From: Dictyostelium discoideum
Lineage: Eukaryota
Assembly: GCA_000004695.1 (NCBI GenBank)
Contig: CM000154.2
Location: 3,072,001-3,136,000 of the forward strand
Reading direction: 5' to 3'
DNA length: 64,000 bases
Part shown: one piece after another, positions 5,727 to 62,890 of the stretch
Position numbering within the stretch: the stretch's first letter is position 1
Layout of the letters: every line of letters begins with the position of its first letter
Notes under the pieces: model-generated
Databases searched by the model: none
What the model was told of the DNA's origin: nothing
What the model saw: the letters and a program-made list of their open reading frames with translations, nothing else
Made by a program: the position numbers and the translations under genes

Positions 5727-7189
5727 TTAATTTGAAATTTCTTTTGCTAAACCTTCGATGATTGATTTATATTCAATTTTTTCATAATTACATTCTGGTA
5801 CACCATTGAAACCATAGAGAGCACCCCACCAACAACAACCAATAGCACCAGTTGAATCATTATCACCACCATGAAGAACTGATCTTTTAATCATTTCTTC
5901 CCAATTATCAGCAGAACCTAATAAGGCATCATATGCTATAATACATGAATCATGACCTGATGAACCACCCCAACCACTAAATGAAATTGAATGATAGAAA
6001 TTCTCTCTAACTTTATAATCTGAATAATCTTTTGGGAAAACTGGATAATCGATACCCTTATCATTGGCTGCTTTTAATTCGTCTGGATTCGATGGAATTT
6101 GTCTTAATTTTAAATAAGATTTCCAAGAGTTCCAAAAATAATTCCAACCTTTTTCATAATTTTCAATGTTACGATTTGAACTATTTGAAGTTTTCTCTAA
6201 ATATTCTCTAGCTTTTGGCATTACCTCTGTCATTAATTTCAAAGGCCAGGTTTTTGGTGGAATTGATCTGATTGCATATGAGGCAAATAATGCTGATACT
6301 AATGCACCTAGAAAGCCAACTGGGTTATTATGTGTGATTCTACCACTTTCAATTGATAATTCAATTAATGTATCCAATTGTTCATCAGACCAATATTTAA
6401 ATCCAATACACATAGATCTCATTGATCCACCACAACCACCTGCTCTATCAGAGAAATCAATCTCATTCCATTGATAAACTTTGGATCTCATTCCAGTTTG
6501 TGTCATCAGTGATACTGAATTAATTGTTTGAATTCCTGGTGCTCTTCCTGCCATATCTTCCATTGAATGAATATATGCTTTTGCTAATTCTTTACATATT
6601 GATTCATTATCTGTATTGGTTGGTCTTGTTATTGCAATTGCTGTTGCAATATGCATAACTATTTTTTTTTTTTTTTTTTTTTTTTAATTAATTTTAACAA
6701 TTTTTAAAATAATATTTATTTATTTAAATTACATACTTGTATCATCTGATAATCTCCAATCTTTCTTATTTATTCTTTAATTTTTTTTCAAAAAAAAAAA
6801 AAAAATTATTATTATTATTCAAATAAAAATAAGAAATAAAATAAAATTAAAAAAAAAAAAAAGTACCTACTTTAGATTTTTATAACCACCAAGATATTCA
6901 TAGTGTTCATATATTCTTGATGGAGACTTTTCAAACTCCCAAATACCATTTTTATATCCACACTTTAAAAATAAAAAAAAATAAAAAAAAAATATTAGAA
7001 TTGATTATTTGTTTGAAAAATAAGAAAAATTGAAAAATTGAAAAATTGAAAAATTGAAAAATCAATACATACAGCATCACCAAATGCTGATAAAAGCATT
7101 GCTGGTTTAATGTTTTCTTTATTAATTGTGCCCATGATTGTTTGTGTAATCTTTTTATTTGTAAGTGTGCTAATAAATTTGTGAAACAT
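5727..7189 (-). CDS. ADP-ribosylarginine hydrolase (ADPRH/ARH1 family, ADP-ribosylglycohydrolase fold); exons (minus) 7189..7073, 6962..6871, 6774..6737, 6658..5727 (392 aa)
   Basis: Exon 1 MFHKF...MGTINKENIKPAMLLSAFGDA aligns with [26 protein letters not shown]; exon 2 CGYKNGIWEFEKSPSRIYEHYEYLGGYKNLK; micro-exon 3 K-INKKDWRLSDDT aligns with RWRVSDDT; exon 4 IMHIATAIAI...GGCGGSMRSMCIGFKYW...SGWGGSSGHDSCIIAYDAL...HGGDNDSTGAIGCCWWGALYGFNGV. Catalytic motifs of ARH1 (GGDSDSTAAIAGCWWG, SGWGGSSGHD) are conserved. Introns: GTATGT..AAAG (7072..6963), GTAGGT..AAAG (6870..6775), GTATGT..ATAG (6736..6659). Phases are consistent: 117 + 92 + 38 + 932 = 1179 nt. Confidence 0.8.
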
Positions 7190-20552: not shown

Positions 20553-21416
20553 CTAAATTGATTTCGGTAAACAATTTTTTATTTTGGTTAAAGTAATATT
20601 ATTGAGTCTAGTATGATCAATTTCAGAAATTGAATGGGTTAAAGAGAATGGTATTGTGTTTAAAATTTTTATTGTTGGTTTGGCATCTTTTCCCATATTA
20701 AAAATACAGTATAAAATTGGAATTGTGTCACCTATTTTAGAACGAATTTCATTGATTTGTAAAGTATCTTTTTCAATATTGGTAAAGATTCCAGTGGAAG
20801 TGGATGCAAAAAATATAATATCATTCTCTTTAATTCCTGCTAAATCATTTATTTGTTTTTCTACTATATTTTGAAATGATAATTTCATTTTTAAACTTTG
20901 TAATAAATTTTCAAAAAATGGTTGATTTTTAATGATAATAAAATTTGGGTTATTATCAACAACAACAACAACATCATCATCATCATCATCAACCTTTAAA
21001 TTATTTTTTTCTTGGTTCAAATAATTTTCAAATGATTGATTTTCATTTATTAATTGTTTATCAATTTCTTGTAAATCTGGTTTTGTTGTTGTTGTAGTTA
21101 TGGATTTATTAATTGGAATTAAAGTTTTTAATTGATTTAGTTTTGAATTTTCTTTTTTTAATAGTTCAATTTCTACCAATTTTTCTTCTAAAATTTCCAG
21201 TAAAAAATGTTTATTTAAATCATGACCAAATTTTTGGAATTGAAATGGATGAAAATAATTTTCAAACTTTTTTTTAACATTTAAAATGGTATCAGTAAAT
21301 TCTAATTCAGTATTAAAATTATTATTACTATTATTATCTGATGGAAATAGGTCGTTAGTTTTTAAAATTTCATCAAAACTTTTAACTGATTTTATTTTTA
21401 AATCAAATGAAAACAT
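20553..21416 (-). CDS. Lineage-specific protein, family A (paralog of 33859..35448)
   Basis: ORF of 287 aa. The N-terminus (FENYFHPFQFQKFGHDLNKHFLLEILEEKLVEIELLKKENSKLNQLKTL) and C-terminus (IIFFASTSTGIFTNIEKDTLQINEIRSKIGDTIPILYCIFNMGKDAKPTIKILNTIPFSLTHSISEI) are collinear with FRLLEKKNLQNL...KFRGIIHIVQIRDLGTKIHRDLLYEIMFEKLLDIARLNNESKLLKNEIQDLKTKL and FVLYAVSCMGARTDSERDAFKIKSIRSIIGDKVPIIYGVFMIGKNGPTRIKVEHTQTSISITHSMSDI of the 33859 gene. Confidence 0.6.
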   Translation of the reverse strand: MFSFDLKIKSVKSFDEILKTNDLFPSDNNSNNNFNTELEFTDTILNVKKKFENYFHPFQFQKFGHDLNKHFLLEILEEKLVEIELLKKENSKLNQLKTLIPINKSITTTTTKPDLQEIDKQLINENQSFENYLNQEKNNLKVDDDDDDVVVVVDNNPNFIIIKNQPFFENLLQSLKMKLSFQNIVEKQINDLAGIKENDIIFFASTSTGIFTNIEKDTLQINEIRSKIGDTIPILYCIFNMGKDAKPTIKILNTIPFSLTHSISEIDHTRLNNITLTKIKNCLPKSI

Positions 21417-21902: not shown

Positions 21903-23061
21903 ATGAATGACAATAATAAATTTTTATATATATGGAGAAATAAAATAATAAAAAATAAAATATTATCTTTTTTAAGAGATGATAAAAATTTTTATAGTAG
22001 TTATCGATATAATAGAATATTTTCATGTTCATGGATGATAGAGAATGGATACTTTGAATTATTAAAAGAAAAAGTTGAAAAAGGTGAATATTTAGTATTC
22101 ATTAATAAAAATATATTTGATAATGGAGTTTTACCATTAGGTTTACCAAGAAGTTTAACAAAAAAGAAATATGATAATAATATTAATAATAATAATAATA
22201 ATGATAATAAAAATAAAAATAATAAAAATAATAATAATAATAATAATATTAAAAATAATCAAATTATTTTCGATAGTAATTCAATTTTTTATAAAGAAAA
22301 AGCAGCAATTCATTGGGATTTAAATTTTTATAATAATTTATTTAAAAATTATTCAAATTATTTTTTAAATTTTAATAAATCAATAACTGAAAGTACATTA
22401 ATCGAATATGATAATCAACAAGCATTACAGGTTTTAGTAGAGAATTTTAATCATATATTAGGGATTGAATCGTTTTTTAAATCATTTGAAATTGGATCTT
22501 ATGAATGTTCATTTTATATTTTTAATAAATTCAAAAATGAAATTTTAAAAAGTAAAAAACATCAAACAAGAATTTGGAATATTATATTAAACTATTCAAA
22601 TATGAAGAATGAGTTAATTACAAGTGAGATTTTAAATCAAAGAATTGATTTCATAATTAATAAATGTCAAATACCACCAACAACAACTACAACAGATTTA
22701 GAATCATTCGTACCATTTTTATTTGAAATTAAAATATTTAAACAAAAATTATCAACAATTATAGATTGTGTTAAATCAATAATTCAATTAAATGAATTAT
22801 TCACACCATTCATTACATCAATAAATGATAAATCTTATAAATTAAAATTACCAAAAAATCAAGAAATCATTTGTTCACCAGCACCACCACAATCGAAAAT
22901 TGATAAAGAATTTAAAATGTTAAATAAATTAATTTCACAATTAGGTAGTAGTGGTAAACAAGATAAAGATCAAGATAAAGATAAAAATAAAAATAATAAA
23001 TTTAAATTACCAATTGATATTAAAGAATTTGAATCATTAATATTTACAAATTTCAATAATG

Positions 23062-23096
<35 letters not shown>

Positions 23097-24689
23097 CAAC
23101 AACAACAACAATTAAATACAATAATTTGTGATTTTAATCAAAATAATACAACTAATGAACAATTTCAATTAATAAAGAAATTATATTTATTATTATTACC
23201 ATTTACAAATCATTTTAATTGTTTTATTGATAATTGGAATTTTTATAAAATTAATTATGAAAATGATTATCAAGATTATCAAACTTTTAAAAAAAATGAT
23301 AATTTCATTGTTAAAGGAACAATTAGATTTCATTCAAAAATGTTTGCACATTATAATTTTAATGATTTGAATAATGAATGTATTGATGATAATAAATTAT
23401 TTGAATATTGTAAAAATGAAAAACAATTACAAATTAATTATTTAAATAATTTAAATAATGATTTAAAAAATAATCAATCAAATAATAATAATAATAATTC
23501 AATTTTAAAATGTATATTAATTAATTTAATTTGGTTGGATGATATGGAATTAATTAAAAATTTAAATATACCAGATGATATTGAATTTTCACAAATTAAT
23601 ATAACAATGTTTATTTCAAAAGTAAAGTCAATTGAAATGTTTGATTTTATAATTCAAATTATTAAAAAGTCAGAATTAAAATTAGAATTAAATAAAAGTC
23701 AACAACAACAAGTATCAAAAATATCAATAGTTTTACAAAGATTAATTTATAGTTATAAACCAATTACCATATTAGAACATTATAAAAATAAATATTCAAG
23801 TGATTATTATTCATCGGTTAGTTCAATTGATTTAAGAGATAAATGTTACAGTTTTGAAATTTTTAAATTTGTTTATGATAATCTTTCAGATTTTAAAGAT
23901 TTAGAAAAAGTTTGTACTTGGCAAAATAATATTAATTTTGCTCCAACTTTAAATCAAATTAAATATTTAGTTGAAAGGACACCACAAAATGAAAAATATT
24001 CATTACCATTCAATTGTAATGTTTATAAACCATTTTTTGAATATGTTGTTGAAGAGAGATTCCAAGATATTCAAAATAAAACATTTGTACCTGAAAATGG
24101 TAAAACAATGTTATTTTGGTATTTTATATTTAATAAAGAATTTAGAAATAATAATAATAATAATGAAAAACATGATGGTGATAGTGGTGATGATGAAATA
24201 ATTTTAAAATATAAATTAAATTTAATGAATTTCTTTGATGAAAAATTTGAAAGAGATCCAAGCATTATTAGAGAAACATTATCAAAAGCATGTAGTTTAA
24301 ATGATTTACATTTCATTGATTTAATAATGGAAAAAGCAAAAAGTAGTAATTTAAAATATAGGTACTATAATATTTATTCAAATTGTTTAATGGAAGTATT
24401 ATCATCAATTGGTGATTTAGAAATTTTAAAATATATTCATTCAAAATATCCAGACTTGGTTGAACAAAATTTTAAAAGTATTGGTCAAAAACAAGATCAA
24501 GTTGGTTTTTTCTTTTGTTGTCCTTCAATTAGATTATCAATTTTAAATGGTAATATAGATATTTTATCATTTATTTTAAATTTATACCCTGAAAAATTAT
24601 CAATTACTTCATCAAGATTATATTTATCTTTTAATAATTCTCAATTACTTAATCACTTTTTAAATTTAAAACTTTTTGAAATTGATTAA
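21903..24689 (+). CDS. Large lineage-specific protein, family B, tandem copy 1 (928 aa)
   Basis: Single ORF. N-terminus W.N....K.L.........Y......I.SC(S/Y)WMIENGYF.LLKEKVEKGEYLVF; core NSIFYKEKAAIHWDLNFYNNLFKNYSNYFLNFNKSITESTLIEYDNQQALQVLVENFNHILGIESFFKSFEIGSYECSFYIFNKFKNEILKSKKHQTRIWNI is about 95% identical to copy 2 and highly similar to copy 3. The C-terminus has an ankyrin-like LSILNGNIDILSFILNLYP. Confidence 0.7.
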
Positions 24690-24921
24690 TCAACCAAAAA
24701 AAAAAAAAAAAAAAAAAAATCATTGTATTAATAATAAAATATAAAATAAATAAAAATAAATCATTGTACTTTTAAACTTATAAACCACACTTTTTTTAAA
24801 AAACAAATAAAAAATACATTTTTCAAATTCTTAATTATTTCTTTTTTTTTTTTGGTTTGAAAATAAAAATCTTTTTTTTTTTTTTTTTTTTTTTAATTTT
24901 TTTTTTTTTTTAAAATATAAA

Positions 24922-27528
24922 ATGAATAATAGAAGAGAGAGTGAAAATTGGTTTTTTAAAGTTTGGAGTAACAAATTTTTAAGGAGTAAAATATTATTAA
25001 AGGTTAAAGTTTTCAATGATTTTTATAATAATTACAAGCTTGATAGAATAATATCATGTTATTGGATGATAGAGAATGGATATTTTCAATTATTAAAAGA
25101 AAAAGTTGAAAAAGGTGAATATTTAGTTTTTAATAGTAGTTTAATTTATCATTCAAAATTTGATAATAAATATATATTATCACAAAGAGAAAGAGTTAAT
25201 AAAAATTTAGAAAATGGTGATGATGAATTTGTGTTAAATGAAAATTCAATTTTTTATAAAGAAAAAGCATCAATTCATTGGGATTTAAATTTTTATAATA
25301 ATTTATTTAAAAATTATTCAAATTATTTTTTAAATTTTAATAAATCAATAACTGAGAGTACATTAATCCAATATGATAATCAACAAGCATTACAAGTTTT
25401 AGTAGAGAATTTTAATCATATATTAGAGATTGAATCATTTTTTAAATCATTTGAAATTGGATCTTATGAATGTTCATTTTATATTTTTAATAAATTTAAA
25501 AATGAAATTTTAAAAAGTAAAAATTTTCAATCAAGAATTTGGAATATTATAATAAATAATATTAAATTATCAAAGAAAGATATAAATAAAGTTGAAAATT
25601 TAATTAATAAAAGTGTAAATTTTATAATAAATAAATGTAATATACAATTACCACCGCCACCACAACAACAACAACAACAACAACAACAATTCACACCATG
25701 GTTATTTAATTTTCAAATTTATGAACAAAAATTATCATTAATTTATAATTGTGTTAAATCAATAGTTCAATTAAAAGAATTTTTTAAATCATATATAAAA
25801 TCAATAAATAATAATTCATTTAAATTTAAATTTGAAAATAAAGATATAATTGAAACTAATAATTTGGTTAAAAAATATATTAAAAAATTTGTTAAGTTAT
25901 TAGTTTATGATGAGAATGGAAAGAAAAAAAAAGATTTTAAAATTCCAGATTTAAAAGAAATTGAATCAATGAAATTTACAAATCAACAATTTAATTCAAC
26001 AATTTCAGATTTAATAACAGATGGTGATGATGAAAATTATGAAAATAAAGATATTCAAGAAAACCTTAGAATTTTATACTTTTCATTAATTCCATTCATT
26101 GAACAGTATGATCATTTAATTGGTAATTTAATTTTTTATAAAGTTAAAATTTTAAATGAAAAGGATTTCATGAAATATAATCATTTGTATCCAAAATTAT
26201 GTCCTAAAATGTTTGGAATATATGGTATTTATGATTATAAATATAATAATGAAAATTATTTATTTATATATTGTAAAAATAATAGAAATCTTCAAATTGA
26301 ATATATTGGAAAAATCATTGAATCATTTCACAATCAAAAATATCCTATATTTGATTTATTATTATTATTTAGAAATTTAGTATGGTTAAATGATTTAGAA
26401 TTGGTTAATTTATTAATAAACAAAATGGAAGATAATGGTTATAGATTTGAAGATAATGATAGACAATTTTTAATTTTAAATATAAAATCAATTGAAATGT
26501 TTGATTTAATTTATAGAAATTTTAAATCACAATCAAAAAACCAAAATAATAATAATAATAATAATAGTAATAATATTTATAATACTAGTTACCCAATTTC
26601 AGAAACAAAGTTTTTTTTTAATACATTATTAAAAAGTAAATTTGAAAATTTATCAATATTATTACAACATTATAAAGATTATTATACAAATGATTATTAT
26701 ACAATAGTTGATTTAATAGATTTTAAAAATAAAAATTATTCATTTGAAGTTTTTAAATTTGTTTATGATAATTTAATAGATTTTAAAGATTATGAAAAAG
26801 TTAATGTTTGGAGTGGTACCAATAATATAAAATTAATAAAAACATTAAATCAATTCAAATATTTAGTTAAACTTACACCAATTAATAAAGATTATAAAAT
26901 ACCATATGGAAATGAATCATTTTTTAAATTTATAATTGAGGAAAGATTAAATGATTTAGAAATTGGTAGATGTGATATTACAGAAACTAGTTTACCAGAT
27001 TATAGATATTTTAAAATTTATAGAAATTATAGAGTTAATAAAAATGAAAATGAAAATGAAAATGAAAAACAATTATATTATTCATTTGAAGGAAATAATA
27101 CAATATTAAGGAATACATTAATAAAGGCGTGTAAATATAATGATTTAAAATTTATTGATATGGTAATGGAAGAATCTTTTTTATATGATCAAAATAATAA
27201 AGATAATGAAAATTTTAAAAATATTTATATTATTAGCATTTTAGAAGTAATATGTTCACAAGGCGATTTAGAACTTTTTAAATATCTTTATTCAAAATAT
27301 TCAAGTACAATAGATTTTTATTTAATAAAAAATGATAAACCTGGTTTTGATGGCTATTGTCTTCCAATTAAACTTGCTTTACTCAATGGTCATATCGACT
27401 TTTTATTATTCATTTTAAATTTAATATCAGATAAAATTTATATAAATTCAAACACAACAATTAATAATAAATTATTATTAAATCATTTTTTAAATGAAAA
27501 AAATGAATTATTAACAATCTTATTATAA
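24922..27528 (+). CDS. Large lineage-specific protein, family B, tandem copy 2 (868 aa)
   Basis: Same architecture as copy 1: RIISCYWMIENGYFQLLKEKVEKGEYLVF; NSIFYKEKASIHWDLNFYNNLFKNYSNYFLNFNKSITESTLIQYDNQQALQVLVENFNHILEIESFFKSFEIGSYECSFYIFNKFKNEILKSKNFQSRIWNI; shared mid/C-terminal blocks (FEVFKFVYDNLIDFKDYEKV, LALLNGHIDFLLFILNL). Confidence 0.7.
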   Translation: MNNRRESENWFFKVWSNKFLRSKILLKVKVFNDFYNNYKLDRIISCYWMIENGYFQLLKEKVEKGEYLVFNSSLIYHSKFDNKYILSQRERVNKNLENGDDEFVLNENSIFYKEKASIHWDLNFYNNLFKNYSNYFLNFNKSITESTLIQYDNQQALQVLVENFNHILEIESFFKSFEIGSYECSFYIFNKFKNEILKSKNFQSRIWNIIINNIKLSKKDINKVENLINKSVNFIINKCNIQLPPPPQQQQQQQQQFTPWLFNFQIYEQKLSLIYNCVKSIVQLKEFFKSYIKSINNNSFKFKFENKDIIETNNLVKKYIKKFVKLLVYDENGKKKKDFKIPDLKEIESMKFTNQQFNSTISDLITDGDDENYENKDIQENLRILYFSLIPFIEQYDHLIGNLIFYKVKILNEKDFMKYNHLYPKLCPKMFGIYGIYDYKYNNENYLFIYCKNNRNLQIEYIGKIIESFHNQKYPIFDLLLLFRNLVWLNDLELVNLLINKMEDNGYRFEDNDRQFLILNIKSIEMFDLIYRNFKSQSKNQNNNNNNNSNNIYNTSYPISETKFFFNTLLKSKFENLSILLQHYKDYYTNDYYTIVDLIDFKNKNYSFEVFKFVYDNLIDFKDYEKVNVWSGTNNIKLIKTLNQFKYLVKLTPINKDYKIPYGNESFFKFIIEERLNDLEIGRCDITETSLPDYRYFKIYRNYRVNKNENENENEKQLYYSFEGNNTILRNTLIKACKYNDLKFIDMVMEESFLYDQNNKDNENFKNIYIISILEVICSQGDLELFKYLYSKYSSTIDFYLIKNDKPGFDGYCLPIKLALLNGHIDFLLFILNLISDKIYINSNTTINNKLLLNHFLNEKNELLTILL

Positions 27529-28058
27529 TATTAATAAATAAAAAAGTGATAAAAAAAAAAAAAAAAAATCATAAAAAAGTAAACCAAATAAAAATTGGAA
27601 TTCGAGGGTTAAAATAATTTTTTTTTATTTTTTTCATCAACACTAACCACATTTCCAGGTGATTATATTCCATGTAGTAGCATTAGTAGTGGTTGTAGTA
27701 GATCCACAAACTTAAGCTCAACTAAAAACCATTAGATCATCAACATCCTTAGAAATATCAACAAACCTTAAATGATCACCATTATACATGAAAAATAATT
27801 ACATTGAAATGTTTATCCTCAAAATAACAACAAAAGATCACTCACAAACATCGAAATAAAAAAAAAAAAAAAAAAAAAAAAAAAGTATATTTGAAAATAA
27901 TAAAAAAAAAAAAAATGGATTGCAATATTATTTTTTTTTTAATTTTTTAAGTGATTTTATTTTTTATTTATTTTTTTATTTTATGATTTTGTTTTTTACC
28001 CCTATAAAAAATTTCTAACCACAAAATTTTAAAAATAATTTTTTTTTTTTTTTTTTTT

Positions 28059-30016
28059 ATGCATATTAATTTTCCAAACACAATGATATCCAATCAAAAT
28101 ATAATAAATAATAATATTGATAATAATAAAAAGTGTACACTTCACCCAAACAAAGATATAATATTCTTTTGTTTAGATTGTAAATTAATACCATGTTGTA
28201 TTCAATGTATATCAAGTAAAGGTGAACATCATGGTCATAAAACTGATCCATTAGAATCAACTTCAAATATTCTTTCATTAATGAATAATTTTAAAGATGA
28301 TATATATCAAAAAGTAATTGACAGAATAGAAACCAATGAAAAAATATTAAAACAATCAAATGATAAATATAATAAAATTCAATCACAATTTGATATTAAT
28401 AATAATTCATTAAAAAAAGAAATTAAAAAAATTCATGATATCATTTCAATCATAGAATTAGATATTAAAAAAAAATTACAAACAACCTTTGAAAATAATA
28501 CATTAATAAATACAATTATAACTTCTTCAATCAATAATGATAATCAAATACTTTCAACTATAATTAATTATAAAAATGAAAATGAAAATGAAAATGAAAA
28601 TGAAAATGAAAATGATAATATTACAACCATTGAAAAATTAAATGAAATTATAAAATTTAATGATCAACAAATTTATGATAATGGAGATGATTTTATTATT
28701 GATAGAGATACTATTAAAATTATTAAACAATATCAACAATCATTAATAGTATTAAATAATAATAATAATATCGATTATTCAAATAAATTAAATGAATACG
28801 ATAATCAAATCATTCATTTCAATAATCAAATAATTGATGATATTAAAAATAATTTAAAATCAATTTATACCTTAGATAATTGTGGATTTAAAATTGAAAT
28901 TGATGAAAATAATAATAAATTTTTTAAATGTAAGCTTTAAACTGTTTTTTTTTTTAATAAATGATTTTCACATTCTAATTACCAAATATAGGGAATAATT
29001 TAAAGTTTTATATTAAATATGAAGGTGGTTTTTTTAAATATAGGGAAGGTATAGCACTCAAAGACAATTGTAATATTTTATCAGAATTAAAAAATAAATT
29101 ACCATTACATGTAATGCTATTGGACGGATTCTATCAAAAATTAACACCAGGTATATTACCAGATGGTGTTATTCTCTTGTATTTAGGTGATATTAAACAA
29201 GAATTAATAATTGGTTCAATTCCTAATACTGTAACGAGTGTCTCTTTATTGAATGGATTCAATCAAAAATTAACACCAGGTATATTACCAGATAGTGTTA
29301 AATCCTTGTATTTGGATGGATTTAATCAACAATTAACACCAGGTATGTTACCATATAGTGTTAAATGGTTGGGTTTAGGTGATTATAAACAAGAATTAAT
29401 AAATGGTTCAATTCCTAATACTGTAACGAGGGTCTCTTTATTGAATGGATTCAATCAAAAATTAACACCGGGTATATTACCAGATAGTGTTAAATTGTTG
29501 AAATTAGGTGATATTAAACAAGAATTAATAATTGGTTCAATTCCTAATACTGTAACTTTTGTCACTTTATTGAATGAATTCAATCAAAAATTAACACCAG
29601 GTATATTACCAGATAGTGTTAAATTGTTGAAATTAGGTGATATTAAACAAGAATTAATAATTGGTTCAATTCCTAATACTGTAACGAGTGTCTCTTTATT
29701 GAATGGATTCAATCAAAAATTAACACCAGGTATATTACCAGATGGTTTAGAATCGTTGTATTTAGGTGATATTAAACAAGAATTAATGATTGATTCAATT
29801 CCTAATACTGTAACGAATGTATCTTTAGAAGATGGATTCAATCAAAAATTAACACCAGGTATATTACCAGATGGTTTAGAATCGTTGTATTTAGGTGATA
29901 TTAAACAAGAATTAATAATTGGTTCAATTCCTAATACTGTAAAGGAAGTAAAAGTTTCCCAAAGTTTTAAACATCAAATTGAACCTTATGTCTCAAAAAA
30001 TGTAAAAATAATTTAA
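28059..30016 (+). CDS. B-box zinc-finger + coiled-coil + FNIP-repeat protein; exons 28059..28929, 28992..30016
   Basis: N-terminus CTLHPNKDIIFFCLDCKLIPCCIQCISSKGEHHGH has B-box Cys/His spacing, followed by a coiled-coil-like K/E/I/N-rich region. The ORF 28059..28940 ends in ...FFKCKL* but a GTAAGC donor at 28930 plus a 62-nt intron ending ATATAG (28991) joins in frame (phase 1, codon TGG) to the open frame carrying ORF 29114..30016. That frame holds about 10 tandem ~22-aa FNIP repeats (FNQKLTPGILPDSVK.L.LGD...QELIIGSIPNTVT.V.LL.G). The repeat unit is about 66 nt and recurs nearly identically at 29150..29900. Confidence 0.6.
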
Positions 30017-30434
30017 TAAGGAATTTGCAGAGTGCTTTATTTTTAATGTTGAATAAAACAATTTCTAGTACTGTAAATGTTTCCAAAAGTTTTAAACTAC
30101 AAAAAAAATCAAATCAAATCAAATCAAATCAAAAATCGTTTCTTGTCAAAATTAAATTAAATTAAATTAAATTATACCAAATCAAATTGTTTCTTTTGAA
30201 AAAAAAAAAAAAAAAATAAAATAAAATAAAAATAAGCCCTGGTGTTTCTGATTTTTTTGCGAATTATATATTTTATTTTATTTTTTTTAATATTTTTTAT
30301 TTTAATTGTGAACAAATAATAAAATAAAAAAAAAAAAATTGTTCAATTAATTTATAATAAATAATAATAATAATAAATAAAGTTTTTTTATTATACATAA
30401 AACAAATGCAAAAATTAAAAACACAACTTTGCAA

Positions 30435-30466
<32 letters not shown>

Positions 30467-31045
30467 CTGATAATTATTAATCGTCTTTTCAGTTTTTTGA
30501 TTTCTTTTTATCTGGGTGATTTATTTTTAATATTTTATTTTTTTTATTTTTTTTATTTTTTTTTTTTTTTTTTATTTTTTTTTTTTATTTTTTTTTATTT
30601 TTTTTATCCCAGTTTATTTGAAAATATCCTTGCATTTTAAATTTTTTATTTTTTTTATTTTTTTTATTTTTAATTCACTTTTTTACACACCACAAAACAC
30701 CATGAAAATATATTTCTTTTTATTGTTATATTTCCACTCCTCATAATAAAAATCACATTACAATAGATTTATGTTTTAAAAAAAAAAAAAATTAAAAAAA
30801 AAAAAAAAAAAAAAAAATAAATAAATAAAAATAAAATTGTGACCAATTAGAAATTTTTTAAAATAAAATGTTTTGTTGAAAAAAAAAGTAATTCAAATAA
30901 TAAAAAAAATATCTTTTTTTTTTTTTCGATTTCCAAATGATCAAAAAAAAATTTTTTTTTTTTTTTTTTTTTTTCTTTTAAATTTTCAAACATATTATTT
31001 TTATTTAATTTTTTTTTTTTATTTAAATTAAAAAATAAAAAAAAA

Positions 31046-33739
31046 ATGAATAATTATAATGATGTTATTTTTTTTAAAATTTGGAGAAATCATTTTATTA
31101 GAAATAATATATTAGAAAAAATTAAAGATGATAAAAATTTTTATGACAGTTTTAAATATGAAAAGATATTTTCATGTTCATGGATGATAGAGAATGGATA
31201 TTATTTATTATTAAAAGAAAAAGTTAATAGAGGTGAAAATTTAATATTCAATTGTATTGATTCACTTTGGGAAACCAATGAAAAAGAATTTATACCAAGA
31301 AATTTAACAAGAAAGAAATTTGATAATGGTCGTCTATTTGTACTAGATTGTAATTCAATTTTTTATAAAGAAAAAGCAGCAATTCATTGGGATTTGAATT
31401 TCTATATAAATTTATTTAAAAATTATCCAAATTATTTTTTAAATTTTAATAAAAATGAAACAGAATTCACATTAATTGAATATGATAATCAACAAGCATT
31501 ACAAATTTTTGTAGAGAATTTCAATCATATATTACAAATTGAATCGTTTTTTAGGTCATTTGAAATTGGTTCTTATGAATGTTCATTTTATATTTTTAAT
31601 AAATTTAAAAATGAAATTTTAAAAAGTAAAAAACATCAATCAAGAATTTGGAATACTTTATTGAATCATTCAATATTTAAAAATGAAATGATTGAAATTG
31701 ATTTAATAAATCAAAGAATTGATTTCATAATTAATAAATGTCAAATACCAATACCAAAATCATTATCAGATGTTCAACAACTCCAATTCGTGCCATGTTT
31801 TTATGAAATTAAAATATATGAACAAAAATTATCAACAATATTAGATTGTTTAAAAACTATATCACAACTTTCAAATATTTTTAAATCATTTTTAAAATCA
31901 ATAAATGATAAATCATATAAAATAAAATTAACAAAAGATCAAGATGAATATTATTCAAAAAAAGGTAGTTCAACACAATTAAATTTAGAATTATCAAATA
32001 TAAATTCATTAATTTGGTCATTAGGTAGTGGTAATAATAATAATAATAATAATAGTACAAGTACATTATTATTATTATCAATAACAGATATTAAAAATAA
32101 ATTTACAAGTAAAGAATTAGAAACAAATATTATTGAATTATTAATTACAAGTGAAAAGAATGAAATAATTTTTGGATTATATCGTTCATTATTACCATTT
32201 ACTCATCATTTAAATCATTTTATTGATAATTGGAATTTTTATCAAATTAAAAGGGAAAATAATTATCAAGATTATTTAAAAATTAAAAAACATACTATTA
32301 TTACAACAGATACTGTTTTTCATTCAAAAATGTTTGCACATTATAAATTTCAAGAATTTATTGATGATTGTCAAGATGATAATAATTTATTTAGATTTTG
32401 TAAAACAAAAGATTCCCAAATTAATTTTATCAATAATTTTAATAAAGATTTAATAATGACAAATCAACCAAAGAAATATAATCTTTATAAAAATATTCTT
32501 TCAAATTTAGTTTGGTTAGATGATATTGAATTAATAAATTTATTAAAGAAACCAGTTGAAGTTGAATTTAAACAAAATGAGAAATTATTATTAATTTCAA
32601 AATTAAAATCAAATGAAATGTTTGATATAGTTTATCAAGTTTTAAAAATGGCAAATGAAATGGAAAGAAATTTAAATATATTAAAATCAATTGATTATAG
32701 TATTAGTTCAACAACAACAACAACTACTACTTCTACCACAACAACAAATACAGTATCAAATGTTACTATTGGTAATGATGGACAACCTATAAAAAGAATT
32801 TTAGAAATGTTAATCTTATGTGAAAAATCAAATATTTTACAACATTTTAAAAATAATTATACTCTTGATTATCTTTCACAAGTGAATTATATTGATTTAA
32901 CAAATAAAACATTTAAATTTGGAATTTTTAAATTTGTTTATGATAATTTATCAGATTTTTCAGTTTATGAGAGAGTTAATGCTTGGAGAAATAATCTTAG
33001 TTTCATAACAAATGTTCAAGAATTTAAATATTTAGTTGAACGTACACCATCATCATCAGATTATAAACTACCATCAGATAATGGTTTATCATATTTTAAA
33101 TATATGGTACAAGAAAGATTATTTGATTTACAAAGTGGTAGATGTAGTTTCGAATCACATAAATATCCAATTTATCAATACTTTAAATTGGTTAAAGATA
33201 AAAGACAAGGTAAAGAAACTAATGAAGATGATATTAAAGAGGAATTTAATGATTTAATTTATCCAAAAAAATCAACATTTAGTAGTTATACACTAAGAAG
33301 TACATTTTCAAAAATTTGTCAATACAATGATTTGGATTTAATTGATCTTATTTTTACCGATGCTTCAAACTTCACCAATTTTGGTGATCAAAAAACAACA
33401 AATTCCAAATCGTATGTACAAATACTTTTGGAAGTAATAACATCACAAGGTGATTTAGAACTTTTTAAATATGTAAATTCAAAATTTCCAGAAATAGTTT
33501 TAATCATTTTAAAAGATGGTTCAAAATCAAGTTGGGTTAACGGTTTTTATCGTTGTTGTCGCCCTGTTCAACTTGCACTTACAAATGGCCATATTGACTT
33601 TTTATTATATATTTTAAGTTTAAAGAAAACAAATAAAGTCTTTTTAAAAATAACTCATATCTCAATTACATTCAATAATAAATGTTTATTAAATCATTTA
33701 ATAAATATAGACAATAGTTATTTATTTTTTGAACATTAA
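31046..33739 (+). CDS. Large lineage-specific protein, family B, tandem copy 3 (897 aa)
   Basis: KIFSCSWMIENGYYLLLKEKVNRGENLIF; NSIFYKEKAAIHWDLNFYINLFKNYPNYFLNFNKNETEFTLIEYDNQQALQIFVENFNHILQIESFFRSFEIGSYECSFYIFNKFKNEILKSKKHQSRIWNT; LLPFTHHLNHFIDNWNFYQI; FHSKMFAHYKF; GIFKFVYDNLSDFSVYERV; LALTNGHIDFLLYILSL. These are collinear with copies 1 and 2. Confidence 0.7.
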   Translation: MNNYNDVIFFKIWRNHFIRNNILEKIKDDKNFYDSFKYEKIFSCSWMIENGYYLLLKEKVNRGENLIFNCIDSLWETNEKEFIPRNLTRKKFDNGRLFVLDCNSIFYKEKAAIHWDLNFYINLFKNYPNYFLNFNKNETEFTLIEYDNQQALQIFVENFNHILQIESFFRSFEIGSYECSFYIFNKFKNEILKSKKHQSRIWNTLLNHSIFKNEMIEIDLINQRIDFIINKCQIPIPKSLSDVQQLQFVPCFYEIKIYEQKLSTILDCLKTISQLSNIFKSFLKSINDKSYKIKLTKDQDEYYSKKGSSTQLNLELSNINSLIWSLGSGNNNNNNNSTSTLLLLSITDIKNKFTSKELETNIIELLITSEKNEIIFGLYRSLLPFTHHLNHFIDNWNFYQIKRENNYQDYLKIKKHTIITTDTVFHSKMFAHYKFQEFIDDCQDDNNLFRFCKTKDSQINFINNFNKDLIMTNQPKKYNLYKNILSNLVWLDDIELINLLKKPVEVEFKQNEKLLLISKLKSNEMFDIVYQVLKMANEMERNLNILKSIDYSISSTTTTTTTSTTTTNTVSNVTIGNDGQPIKRILEMLILCEKSNILQHFKNNYTLDYLSQVNYIDLTNKTFKFGIFKFVYDNLSDFSVYERVNAWRNNLSFITNVQEFKYLVERTPSSSDYKLPSDNGLSYFKYMVQERLFDLQSGRCSFESHKYPIYQYFKLVKDKRQGKETNEDDIKEEFNDLIYPKKSTFSSYTLRSTFSKICQYNDLDLIDLIFTDASNFTNFGDQKTTNSKSYVQILLEVITSQGDLELFKYVNSKFPEIVLIILKDGSKSSWVNGFYRCCRPVQLALTNGHIDFLLYILSLKKTNKVFLKITHISITFNNKCLLNHLINIDNSYLFFEH

Positions 33740-33858: not shown

Positions 33859-35448
33859 TTATTGTTGTAAAAATGATTGTAGTTGTTTTAAATTTTCATT
33901 ATTTTGTAAATTACGACCGATATCACTCATTGAATGAGTGATTGAGATAGAGGTTTGAGTATGTTCAACTTTAATTCTAGTTGGTCCATTCTTTCCAATC
34001 ATAAATACACCATAGATGATTGGAACTTTGTCACCAATTATTGAACGAATTGATTTAATTTTGAAAGCATCTCTTTCGGAATCAGTTCTAGCACCCATAC
34101 AAGAGACAGCATATAATACAAAAACATTTTCAAAATCACCTACACTATAGCTATTATCATTTAACCCAATTTTAGTAAGGTCTTTTACTTCTTGGACTGT
34201 TACATCTTTCAATCTACTTTGTAATAATGTTGTCATATTTGGAAAGAAATCACTTTGTTTGTACACCAATAGCTTTTTATTTGTGATTACTTGTTGTTTT
34301 GTTACAAATGTAGTTTCAGCAAACAATGGTGTTTTCAATGCTTCAACTTCCATCTCTGCAGTAGATACATCATCATTGGAAGACCTTGGGTGTGTATCAA
34401 CTTTAATTTCTAAAGTTTCATTTTGTGGAATTTCAATAATAAATTCTTCACCATTTTTTTGTTTATCTTCTAGTTTTTCTTCTTTTTGTTTATCTTCTTC
34501 TTGTTTATCTTCTTTCTTATCTTCTTCTTTTTTATCTTCTTTTTGTTTATCTTCTTCTTGTGGAATTTCAATAATAAAATTTTCACCATCTTGTTGTTTA
34601 CCTTCTTCTTTTTGTTTTTCTTCTTCTTGTGGAATTTCAATAATAAAAATTTCACCATATTTTTGTTTACCTTCTTCTTTTTTATCTTCTTCTTTTTTAT
34701 CTTCTTTTTGTATACCTTCTTTTTGTTTAACCTCTTCTTGTTTAACCTCTTCTTGTTTATCTTGTTTCTCTTCATTTTGATGTGAAGGTGAAGTTGATGA
34801 AAATGTTTGTTGATTAGTCTCTGTTTGAGTTTGCTGTTTTACAGTTTTTATTGATTCTTGTGGAATCTCATTGGTAATATTATTCACTTGATTTTGTTTT
34901 TCTTCTAGTTTGTGTGATGGTGATGATTGTTGGGATTGGTCACTTTTTATTTTAAAAAAATCGAGTTCAATAGATTTATCAATGGAATCACCTTCACTTT
35001 GTTTTTTATCAATACTAGTAGCTCCCATTGTTGTCTTAGTGGTAGTAGTAGTAGTAGTGGTGTCTATGACATTGATAAAACTATTGATTATTAAGTCTGT
35101 ATTGGTGGTGCTATTATTGTTGTGATATTCGTCGAGTTTTGTTTTCAAATCTTGAATTTCATTTTTTAAAAGTTTTGATTCATTATTTAATCTAGCAATA
35201 TCTAATAGTTTTTCAAACATTATTTCATACAATAGATCTCTATGAATCTTTGTTCCTAAATCTCTAATTTGCACGATATGAATGATACCCCTGAATTTAG
35301 GAACTTTGGAAAAATCTTTTTCTGTATAAGTGGTTCTCCAATTGAGGTTTCCTGGTCCATCAATCTGGTTATCTAGGTTTTGTAAATTCTTCTTTTCCAA
35401 AAGTCTAAAAAATTCATCTACGTCTTTTAAATGGAAAAAATCTAACAT
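33859..35448 (-). CDS. Lineage-specific protein, family A (paralog of 20553..21416), with internal E/K-rich tandem repeats
   Basis: ORF of 529 aa. Its ends are homologous to the 20553 gene (see that entry). The centre holds three copies of (Y/D)GE(I/N/E)FIIEIPQ(E/N)E separated by K/E/Q/D-rich spacers, from roughly 111-nt repeat units around 34440..34790. The antisense ORFs 34259..34780, 34470..34775 and 34486..34785 are by-products of this repeat. Confidence 0.65.
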   Translation of the reverse strand: MLDFFHLKDVDEFFRLLEKKNLQNLDNQIDGPGNLNWRTTYTEKDFSKVPKFRGIIHIVQIRDLGTKIHRDLLYEIMFEKLLDIARLNNESKLLKNEIQDLKTKLDEYHNNNSTTNTDLIINSFINVIDTTTTTTTTKTTMGATSIDKKQSEGDSIDKSIELDFFKIKSDQSQQSSPSHKLEEKQNQVNNITNEIPQESIKTVKQQTQTETNQQTFSSTSPSHQNEEKQDKQEEVKQEEVKQKEGIQKEDKKEEDKKEEGKQKYGEIFIIEIPQEEEKQKEEGKQQDGENFIIEIPQEEDKQKEDKKEEDKKEDKQEEDKQKEEKLEDKQKNGEEFIIEIPQNETLEIKVDTHPRSSNDDVSTAEMEVEALKTPLFAETTFVTKQQVITNKKLLVYKQSDFFPNMTTLLQSRLKDVTVQEVKDLTKIGLNDNSYSVGDFENVFVLYAVSCMGARTDSERDAFKIKSIRSIIGDKVPIIYGVFMIGKNGPTRIKVEHTQTSISITHSMSDIGRNLQNNENLKQLQSFLQQ

Positions 35449-36149: not shown

Positions 36150-39100
36150 TTAAGAACCTTGGGTTCCAATTTTTTTTAGTTTTTTAGATAATTGATTTTC
36201 AACAAATTTCTTTTTATAGATATAGAAAGATAAAGCAATAACCAAAGCCACACCTAATACACCAGAAACAACCACCACAGGAATTAAATAAGCAGGTCTT
36301 TCACTTTCACCACAATCATTTTTAAAAGATGTCGTAACTAAAACGGAAAAATCAGGGTCAATTATACAATTTGTACAATATGGTAAATTTAAACCAACAA
36401 TAACTGAATCACTTGATTTTGTAACAAGCTCAGATGTGATAATTGAAGATCTACCATCTGAAAGTATTCTATTTAAAAATCTGGCTTGCATAATTTTTGA
36501 ATCCTTTTTAATTGTTATATAATTTAATAATTCGTTATTACTATTTTGAATATCTGTATCTTGTTGATTACAATCATTATTATCACTTGTTACTGATGAT
36601 TGAAATTGTAATTGTAAATTATTTAAGAATGAATTATATTGATAATTATTAATTGATACCGAAATTTTAATTGAACCACTATCTAAAGTTAAATTATAAC
36701 CTGCAAATGAGTAATGTTTTGATTTCTCTTTAATCTCCTCAACTGTATATGATACAGTACAATTTGTTAATGATTGAACTAATGTTTGAGAGAATTGATA
36801 AATATTATTACTATTATTATCATCTGTATTTTTCATTTCTGTTACCCATTTATTATCTAATGTATACTCTTTAATTACATTTTTATCAACATCAAATTCA
36901 ATTAATTTTGTAATTAAAATTTGGTAACTTGTTTTTTGATTATTTATAACTGTTGTACCATTATTATCAATTGTTGTATTTGATGATGGTACTCCACCAT
37001 TACCATTACCACCACCACCACCACTAATGATGCTACAATCAAATCCTGTATATCCAGATCTACAATTACATTCACCTGTATTTACAATACAATCACCATT
37101 TTTTGAACAATTATTTAAACAACTTTTAACACTTGTTTCATAAATGAAATAGCCTGACCATGAAACTCCATTTTGTTGAATTGATAATGACTTTTTACCT
37201 GTACCTGGCCAAATAGTACATTGTATTGAAACATTTGTTATGGTATTTTGAATTAATGGACAATTTTGATTATCAATGCTAACTATTAAATTATTATGAG
37301 AATTTGAAAACCAACCATATAAAGTTATATCACCACCCATTTCATTAACAGAATCAATCGAGGATACATATATATTGGTATTTATACTACAATCATCACC
37401 ACTCCATCCAACTGCGCAAACACATTTTAATGAATTTGTATCACAATATTCACCAATGTTACACTCTCTATAACATTTAGGTGGAAGTTGTGATTGAGTT
37501 GCATTTACTGTTTTAACAATTTCTTTAATACTTGAAAAATAAATTGTAAAAATACCATTTGATGGTAATAATTCATTAAAATAGTATGAAGATTCAAATC
37601 TGTATGATGGAATGGTTGGTTCCCAACTAAAAAATGGTACCGTATAAAAATCTTGAGAATTAAGTCCAATATCATTTCCCCACATTATTAATTTTTTATT
37701 TACTCTATCAATATAAATATTAACTTTAATTGTAGAACATGTTGGGTCATATTTCAAATTACTATTAAATAAAAAAATATTTCTTGATGATGATGGGTAA
37801 CATGAAAAACATGAAGGTAAAGTTCCAGATAAATTATTAAACTTTAAATCTAAAGACATTGAATTCATTGTACAATAACTTGAATCAACTGTTCCTGATA
37901 TCTTTTTTATAAAAAAAATAATAAAAATAAAAACATAATTATAAAAAAAAAAAAAAAATCAAAATTAATATTATTCAAATAATTTGATTTTTAAATTTTT
38001 AAAAAATACATACCATATTATTACTTAAATCTAAAATTGAAAAATTATTTTTTGGTAACTTTACATTTAAATTGGAATACAATATTTTTAATTCGTCAAC
38101 ATTTGAAAATTTATTCAAATCTTTTTCATTTGGAAAATTTCCTCCATTTATTTCAAATTTTTTGATATTTGGAAGTGATAAAAATGGGATCATACCATTT
38201 ATTGAAAATTCACCAAAAGTATATCCAAATCTTAATTCTGTTATATTATTGTTTTCTGGTAATTCAATCATTTGGGTTGGTTTATTTATCATTCCACCTA
38301 TTGATCTTTTTTTTTTTTTTTTTTTTTTATAATTATTATTATTATTTTTATTATTTTAAACGATTAAAAAAATTTAAAAAAAAATATTTACAATGATGTC
38401 ATTATTGAATTTTGAATATTAAATATTGATATTGGGAAATCTATAGTAGAATTATTAATGAATGCACTAAAAGATAAATAAAACTTTATTAGTTTACAAT
38501 TTCTAATAATAAAACTATAATTAATAATACATACAATTTTTGAACTTTGGTCATTGTTGCCAAGTTTGATACATCATTATTAATGTATGAAAAATAATCT
38601 GTTAAATATAAATTCAATTCTTTTACATTTACATTTGTAAAAGATGGTATAGAATTTGCAACTAAACTTAAAAAATCAATATCCAAAACACTTTTAAGGT
38701 CATTTACATAAGTAACTGAAATTTCTCCAATACTTGTATTAGGAACAATTTCTAGTATTCCAAATTTATTTAAATATGAAAATTTAAACTCTCCTTGAAA
38801 ACTAGGTGGATGAACTATTGATCTATTATGAAACAATTAATAATAAAATTTATGAATAATGATAATAAAAAAAATAAAAAAATAAAAAAATAAAATAAAC
38901 TTACAAATATGTTTGAGAAATTGGTGAATCAATCTTTACAACATTACATAGAGTTAAAGTTATAGATTCCACATAAACATTGCTTAAAAAATCTGGTGAT
39001 AGGTAACAATTTGAGAGTTTTCTTATTTTTTTTTTTTATTTTTAATATTGAAAATTAAAAAATAATTAATAAAATAAAAAATAGTTTAAAATAATTAAAA

Positions 39101-41135: not shown

Positions 41136-41208
41136 CGCCCAAAGGGGGGCTCGAACCCCCGACCACAAGGTTAAAAGCCTTGCGCTCTACCGACTGAGCT
41201 ATCTGGGC
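41136..41208 (-). tRNA. tRNA-Lys (anticodon UUU), 73 nt
   Basis: Minus-strand sequence GCCCAGA-TA-GCTC-AGTCGGT-AGAGC-G-CAAGG-CTTTTAA-CCTTG-TGGTC-GGGGG-TTCGAGC-CCCCC-TTTGGGC-G. It has a 7-bp acceptor stem (one G-T), D-arm GCTC/GAGC, anticodon loop CT-TTT-AA, T-arm GGGGG/CCCCC with TTCGAGC loop, and internal A-box (TAGCTCAGTCGG) and B-box (GGTTCGAGCCC). Confidence 0.85.

Positions 41209-59179: not shown

Positions 59180-62890
<3,711 letters not shown>

Follow-up and report, generated by a model that had tools for sequence, protein, structure and literature searches.

Recurrent gene conversion and purifying selection as the probable basis of a near-identical core segment in three old tandem genes of Dictyostelium discoideum

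What keeps one short coding segment nearly identical among three neighbouring genes that have otherwise diverged widely? The question is raised by a tandem array in a 64,000-nucleotide stretch of the Dictyostelium discoideum AX4 genome (the window), which is extremely AT-rich, with a guanine-plus-cytosine (GC) content of 11–31% in 2-kb windows. The array consists of three single-exon open reading frames (ORFs) on the plus strand: copy A (DDB_G0289683; 21903..24689; 928 amino acids), which is matched over its full length at 100% by an NCBI protein labelled 'hypothetical protein', and copies B (DDB_G0289685, UniRef Q54H63; 24922..27528; 868 amino acids) and C (DDB_G0289687, UniRef Q54H61; 31046..33739; 897 amino acids), both identified by exact sequence look-up and named 'Ankyrin repeat-containing protein' in UniRef. 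Copies A and B lie 232 bp apart, and the gap between B and C carries an extra 3.5 kb in AX4. The three proteins can be aligned from end to end (41–50% overall amino-acid identity; 64% mean column identity), and N-terminal, middle and C-terminal blocks were all recovered among them by blastn and tblastn, with homology reaching beyond the low-complexity tracts. An earlier inspection of the letters and their ORFs, made without database searches (the sequence-only reading), had described three same-strand ORFs with such common blocks; its coordinates proved exact, and the observation of a paralogous array with a near-identical core is confirmed. Neither an additional full-length copy nor a fragment of these genes was found in the window by tblastn, the sole weak match being an N-terminal one at 59183-59407.

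The core comprises ~94 codons (~282 bp), at 22278..22559 (+; residues 126-219) in copy A, 25243..25524 (+; residues 108-201) in copy B and 31352..31633 (+; residues 103-196) in copy C; it is a conversion tract with sharp edges in the first two, and a strongly selected, less often converted segment in the third. Core identity is 93.8% at the amino-acid and 95.8% at the nucleotide level between A and B, 88.5 and 89.9% between A and C, and 86.5 and 88.9% between B and C, whereas outside the core paralogue identity is 40–45% (amino acid) and 64–66% (nucleotide). At nucleotide resolution the A–B tract extends over ~281 nucleotides with only seven differences (97.5% identity). Its edges are discrete: in 20-codon windows A–B identity rises from 0.51-0.62 to 0.98-1.00 in the core and falls again to 0.44-0.72, a step completed within ~20 codons at each end. 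The near-identity of ~100 residues at both the protein and DNA levels, as well as the sharp boundary for which a pairwise nucleotide comparison had been proposed, were thus borne out, the core standing at 86–94% amino-acid identity among the copies and far above its flanks.

The same reading had offered recent duplication as one source of this pattern. The age of the array was assessed at the syntenic loci of D. citrinum (L001), D. firmibasis (L002) and two more assemblies that carry the D. discoideum label (L003 and L004), with the copies in the first two species designated cit_1 to cit_3 and fir_1 and fir_2. Three copies are present in AX4, D. citrinum, L003 and L004, and two in D. firmibasis. 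Judged by the sequences flanking the core, the orthologue groups are A/cit_1, B/cit_2/fir_1 and C/cit_3/fir_2: flank nucleotide identity is 83% for A–cit_1, 85% for B–cit_2, 86% for C–cit_3, 74% for B–fir_1 and 78% for C–fir_2, yet 60–66% between paralogues (64% for A–B), and each orthologue clade of the flank tree has 100% bootstrap support. Because the flanks group strictly by orthology across species, the triplication can be placed, on this comparison, before the split of D. discoideum and D. citrinum, and the B/C duplication is older than D. firmibasis.

These results leave next to no probability for a history in which the genes were recently duplicated in tandem and then diverged very fast everywhere but in the core. 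The tandem, same-strand layout would suit such a history, as would a ratio of nonsynonymous (dN) to synonymous (dS) divergence of ~1 in paralogue flanks; it is nonetheless refuted by flank orthology, by the shared syntenic position and by the fully supported orthologue clades, with one-to-one D. citrinum orthologues for all three copies and D. firmibasis orthologues for B and C. Divergence between paralogue flanks is saturated (dN ~0.5), and their dN/dS of ~1 is attributable to saturated dS, since flank dN/dS is 0.3-0.5 between orthologues. The paralogue ratio might also have indicated that the flanks are under positive or relaxed selection, a reading rejected on the same ground of dS saturation under extreme codon bias. 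Nor did the description of an expanding family hold, as copy number at the locus is static (3, 3, 3, 3 and 2) and, in one lineage, copy A is disrupted by a frameshifting deletion.

This disrupted copy A is that of L003 (7220-9755; assembly GCA_054859355.1). Relative to the intact L004 copy it has a 177-nucleotide in-frame deletion, by which the WMIENGY block near the N terminus is lost, and a second deletion of 38 nucleotides that shifts the frame; neither is located in a homopolymer run, and the annotated model P0004 (801 amino acids) splices around both. The core of this copy is identical to that of L004 copy A. L003 copy A is probably a decaying copy. In D. firmibasis, the annotated start of fir_1 (MIENGYF) is placed too far downstream, as the N-terminal module (MKDKEIDNWFFSVWRNRFLRSLIF...) is present in frame upstream of it (L002, ~6870-7010).

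The core tells a different history from the flanks. In the core tree, A+B, cit_1+cit_2 and fir_1+fir_2 are each recovered with 100% bootstrap support, and orthologue clades with 0–2%; core nucleotide identity is 97% for A–B but 89% for A–cit_1 and 88% for B–cit_2. The discordance was also measured in a model-free manner, by counting quartet site patterns that group sequences by species against those that group them by orthology. For A, B, cit_1 and cit_2 the ratio is 21:0 in the core and 12:417 in the flanks. When C is combined with A or B and the citrinum orthologues, the two quartets give 12:5 and 10:6 (core) against 22:409 and 11:444 (flanks); B, C, fir_1 and fir_2 give 8:1 against 32:264, and a fifth quartet 14:3 against 32:281. 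Moreover, all three AX4 copies differ from all three citrinum copies at nine core sites, but at none of 2052 flank sites.

Among the 21 species-grouping core sites of the A/B/cit_1/cit_2 quartet, 7 are synonymous and 14 nonsynonymous. The synonymous changes comprise GTT/GTC, three cases of TTT/TTC and AGT/TCA, the last being a complete serine codon swap common to both paralogues. Where the encoded amino acid is the same, within-species pairs agree in their codons more often in the core than in the flanks (Fisher tests, P = 0.0024, 0.0003 and 0.008), while in orthologue pairs core and flanks do not differ (P = 0.5-0.7).

Silent sites such as these bear on the idea of parallel adaptive substitution, in which the cores bind one fast-evolving partner and the same replacements are fixed independently in each, with no transfer of DNA. 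The excess of nonsynonymous sites (14 of 21) and the nine sites fixed differently in AX4 and citrinum are what it would predict; left unexplained by it are the shared synonymous changes, a synonymous TGT/TGC polymorphism common to the copies within strains, and the sharp nucleotide-level edges of the tract. As a full account it is very unlikely, although the process may act alongside conversion, with selection favouring converted alleles.

The silent sites bear equally on a function of the nucleotides themselves (an embedded RNA, a regulatory element or an antisense ORF) that would preserve the 280 bp irrespective of the protein. Such a function would fit the very high A–B DNA identity (97.5%), but silent-site divergence between orthologues is the same in core and flanks (dS of 0.40, 0.28 and 0.34 in the core; 0.47, 0.30 and 0.28 in the flanks), as is their codon identity at same-amino-acid positions. 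Equal silent divergence speaks for constraint on the amino-acid sequence (orthologue core dN of 0.08-0.11) with no extra constraint on silent sites, and we consider a nucleotide-level function highly improbable.

Could the core then be merely the most constrained part of the genes, with no exchange of DNA at all? Constraint is clearly strong. Between A and C and between B and C, core dN is 0.07-0.08, six-fold lower than flank dN (0.45-0.49), and core dS (0.35-0.36) is close to that of the flanks (0.45-0.49). Across all paralogue pairs core dN is 0.01-0.13 and flank dN ~0.5, and across orthologue pairs 0.08-0.11 and 0.12-0.15, with dS about equal. Because dS in the comparisons with C is near normal while dN is six-fold lower, purifying selection on the core is strong, and much stronger than on the remainder of the protein. 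Core conservation therefore has two causes, conversion and strong purifying selection, the second of which the sequence-only reading had missed.

Purifying selection alone would account for the five- to sixfold deficit of core dN between paralogues, for the near-normal core dS in the A–C and B–C pairs, and for a segment such as the WMIENGY block, which is highly conserved (88–93% nucleotide identity between A and B) and nevertheless groups by orthology (quartet windows 25-75). The same block indicates that high conservation by itself produces no species-grouping signal, and the N-terminal module is thus kept by selection, not conversion. Selection cannot make paralogues share lineage-specific changes, seven of them synonymous and one a three-nucleotide serine swap, in a core that scores 21:0; nor does it predict within-species core clades at 100% bootstrap, or an A–B core dS of 0.09 when the flanks of the same pair stand at 0.53 and orthologue cores at 0.28-0.40. 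For A–B, cit_1–cit_2 and fir_1–fir_2 selection alone is already refuted, and as a general explanation it is scarcely credible.

Exchange is also visible on a shorter timescale. AX4 differs from the L003 and L004 lineages by 3–4% of nucleotides, and comparison of copies A and B between them yields four to five strain-grouping sites in the core, whereas in the flanks 0–1 such sites stand against 596–679 ortholog-grouping ones. One synonymous change, TGT to TGC, is found in all three copies of one strain. Exchange involving copy C is rare at this timescale (0–1 site). Conversion went on beyond the split of the D. discoideum lineages. Ongoing conversion of one domain, as the sequence-only reading had suggested, is hence supported by fully discordant core and flank trees, by the 21:0 against 12:417 site patterns, by synonymous sites and by these post-split exchanges; recurrent short-tract interlocus conversion confined to the ~282-bp core is demonstrated.

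We thus favour, with a probability of about 0.85, the interpretation that A, B and C are old tandem paralogues whose core evolves in concert through recurrent short-tract conversion together with strong purifying selection. Under this interpretation, interlocus gene conversion, a non-reciprocal recombination acting here over short tracts, has copied the core repeatedly between neighbouring genes; the lineages of D. discoideum, D. citrinum and D. firmibasis each underwent it separately, and it recurred once D. discoideum lineages had diverged. Exchange between A and B is the commonest and exchange with C rarer, which fits the proximity of the former pair (232 bp, as against the extra 3.5 kb before C in AX4). 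Homologous recombination requires a minimal near-identical stretch, and mismatch repair rejects diverged heteroduplex. Selection may keep the cores similar enough to act as substrate for homologous recombination, and heteroduplex formation or extension may stop at the diverged, indel-rich sequence on both sides, which 5' of the core is a linker of variable length; a stop at such flanks would explain both the sharp edges and a self-reinforcing homogeneity.

Several observations weigh against this interpretation or soften it. A GC-biased footprint is absent from the tract (core GC of 15–17% and third-position GC, GC3, of 5–8%, not above the flanks), although such a repair footprint is common, not obligatory, in gene conversion. 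Codon usage is extremely biased (GC3 of 5–13%), which makes synonymous sites poorly informative, and even saturated paralogues share 75–86% of same-amino-acid codons, so that dating of conversion events by dS is rough. The signal in the copy C core is a mosaic (12:5 and 10:6), which implies that its likeness to A and B derives mostly from selection plus older exchanges.

As for what the core is part of, A, B and C are predicted to be ~900-residue all-alpha proteins with four parts: a dictyostelid-specific N-terminal module, the ~94-residue helical core, a middle region and, at the C terminus, divergent ankyrin repeats. The core is preceded by a linker of variable length (poly-Asn in copy A), and no part of the AlphaFold2 (AF2) models is predicted with greater confidence (predicted local distance difference test, pLDDT, 84–97); the middle is helical, indel-rich and variable, with low-complexity inserts. 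A Pfam scan at E ≤ 1 returned nothing in B or C, and in A only a below-threshold match to DUF2560 (E = 0.46), in keeping with the earlier statement that no known domain was recognizable beyond an ankyrin-like motif. A search of PDB sequences with the three-paralogue profile gave no match. With Foldseek against the PDB, the full-length AF2 model retrieved generic HEAT/ARM/TPR solenoids only (E > 0.02), and the domain model nothing below E = 0.3.

The ankyrin-like C terminus was upheld at the profile level. Pfam Ank models fail to match any of the three proteins, even with the threshold relaxed to E ≤ 1, yet a divergent repeat region lies at 24099-24686 in A, 26986-27525 in B and 33158..33736 (+) in C. 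The segment hidden Markov model (HMM) of copy C residues 705-897 scores 120–416 bits against bona fide ankyrin proteins and ~0 against reversed sequences, while the ankyrin signal of the core lies within noise (29.6 bits versus 14.4 for reversed sequences). Consistently, when a family profile built from 10 sequences was used for an exhaustive search with HMMER, positions 745-828 of the profile matched multi-repeat proteins in 6–24 stretches each, and four of four such proteins scanned carry Pfam Ank domains. Relative to the Pfam Ank clan (PF00023, PF12796, PF13637 and others), the family thus lacks a model match and has profile-level homology in its C-terminal region only; compared with ankyrin proteins, two thirds of each A/B/C protein is without an assignable repeat family. 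What can be defended is the description of a helical-repeat protein specific to dictyostelids, which has an uncharacterized module at its N terminus and divergent ankyrin repeats at its C terminus.

The same search recovered 85 representative clusters at E ≤ 0.001 (13 of them below 1e-30), with 37 matches at E ≤ 1e-10, and the matches fall into three groups: (i) full-length relatives that keep the core pattern SIF..LFKNY..YF / IE.DN..AL.VLVE.F / EIGS....Y.F; (ii) proteins that have only the N-terminal ~70 residues in common, many with Pfam ankyrin repeats; (iii) canonical multi-repeat ankyrin proteins, matched repeatedly at profile positions 745-828. The full-length architecture with the core is limited to roughly 30–40 clusters. 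All relatives whose source was checked are from Dictyostelium (D. discoideum, D. citrinum, D. firmibasis, D. purpureum and D. dimigraforme), so that the label of a lineage-specific family stands for these homologues.

The N-terminal module (~70 amino acids; ...FxxIWRNKxIxxxIL...SCSWMIENGYFxLLKEKVxxGExLxF) occupies 21903..22112 in A, 24922-25143 in B and 31046-31261 in C (all +), and is found at the head of 82 of the proteins recovered, each matched over 45 positions or more, with A, B and C themselves at E values of 4e-28 to 6e-31. It is the module of the dictyostelid superfamily 'LFWKVFRNKYL...WMI.NGY..LLKDKV' (for example DDB_G0284967 and DICPUDRAFT_149926; E of 1e-11 to 1e-31), which is characterized by the pattern ...F(W/F)K(V/I)(F/W)(R/K)N..L...I... 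followed by ...(E/D)WM(I/L).N.(Y/H)..LLK.K(V/I) and whose members resemble A, B and C in that the module is followed by helical or ankyrin repeats, but differ in that most share the module only. No Pfam match was obtained for 37 modules scanned at E ≤ 10, nor a PDB match with the module profile. F-box proteins are substrate adaptors of SCF (Skp1–cullin–F-box) ligases and have an N-terminal F-box of ~45 residues; an F-box reading of the module was rejected, as no F-box match emerged in the whole proteins, in the 37 modules (E ≤ 10) or in PDB sequences. Elsewhere in the window, a 1236-aa ORF at 59180-62890 (+) opens with the module (FEVLFWKVIHNKFLFKLIF...SLDWMIEQKQYQLLKCKL) and is otherwise unrelated to the array.

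From this architecture it may tentatively be proposed that A, B and C are intracellular protein-interaction scaffolds; likewise with low confidence, the invariant core might dock a partner common to all three while the fast-evolving flanks would give copy-specific interactions. A bolder and unlikely extension is that the core is a docking surface for one rapidly co-evolving partner, conversion being selected because it spreads compensatory changes to all paralogues, and that the locus belongs to a system of recognition or conflict peculiar to its lineage, whether social, immune-like or symbiont-related, in group-4 Dictyostelium. Suggestive in this respect are the 14 nonsynonymous species-specific changes common to paralogues and the 9 fixed-different sites, the fairly fast flanks (orthologue dN/dS of 0.3-0.5), the AX4-only gene insertion described below and the decay of copy A in one lineage.

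That insertion occupies the interval between copies B and C (27529-31045). A B-box ORF and an FNIP-repeat ORF in it join in frame across a 62-nucleotide GTAAG...ATAG intron and so form one B-box + FNIP gene on the plus strand (exon 1, 28059-28929; intron, 28930-28991; exon 2, 28992-30016). At the syntenic loci of D. citrinum, L003 and L004 the entire 3.5-kb spacer is missing and only ~190-460 bp separate copies 2 and 3; the spacer has the appearance of an AX4-specific insertion. Beside it there is no tRNA and no evident mobile element, and no homology to the other loci examined was found, observations that lend no support to a mobile-element or tRNA-targeted origin. The only tRNA predicted in the window is a tRNA-Lys(UUU) at 41136-41208 (-).

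The array is bracketed by two minus-strand genes (20553-21416 and 33859-35448) that are paralogous to one another (BLASTP E = 7e-18; 31% of residues identical in the C-terminal 140 amino acids, plus an N-terminal match) and in neither of which Pfam recognizes a domain. In the other species, too, the genes at the equivalent flanking positions lie on the minus strand, a correspondence of position. Further downstream lies a ComC-like gene (36150-37868, -), whose synteny is conserved in all loci examined (L001–L004) and whose orthologues carry Pfam LRR_ComC and ComC_SSD.

Existing annotation calls the A/B/C genes hypothetical or 'ankyrin repeat-containing', but they are uncharacterized: a literature search on the three gene identifiers and DDB_G0284967 returned no paper mentioning them, and the general literature on Dictyostelium gene conversion and ankyrin family expansion held nothing on this family. 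The present analysis marks the ~94-residue core as a functionally critical part of a Dictyostelium-specific family and as a defined bait for interaction studies; the N-terminal module, which occurs in at least 80 dictyostelid clusters and is matched by nothing in Pfam or the PDB, may merit definition as a family of its own. The locus also provides a multi-species example of conversion confined to a selected core, a test case for tract length and mismatch tolerance in an AT-rich genome, and a warning that phylogenies or orthology calls made from the core would group genes by species.

Interlocus (ectopic) gene conversion and partial concerted evolution are known from primate globin and opsin genes and from tandem duplicates of Drosophila and yeast, and conversion restricted to one domain of tandemly arranged paralogues is textbook knowledge. 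No concept is changed by the present finding: the mechanism itself appears to offer nothing new, and the locus to be a clean but ordinary case. It differs from the usual interlocus systems in having a tract without a GC-biased footprint. As in those systems, a short tract is homogenized non-reciprocally between nearby same-strand paralogues, the phylogenies of tract and flanks are discordant, the edges are sharp, the tract is the most constrained coding segment and the closest neighbours convert most; here the tract consists of one ~280-bp segment that codes for a domain, set in ~2.7-kb genes whose remaining sequence is saturated in divergence, and the tract recurs in no fewer than three species lineages.

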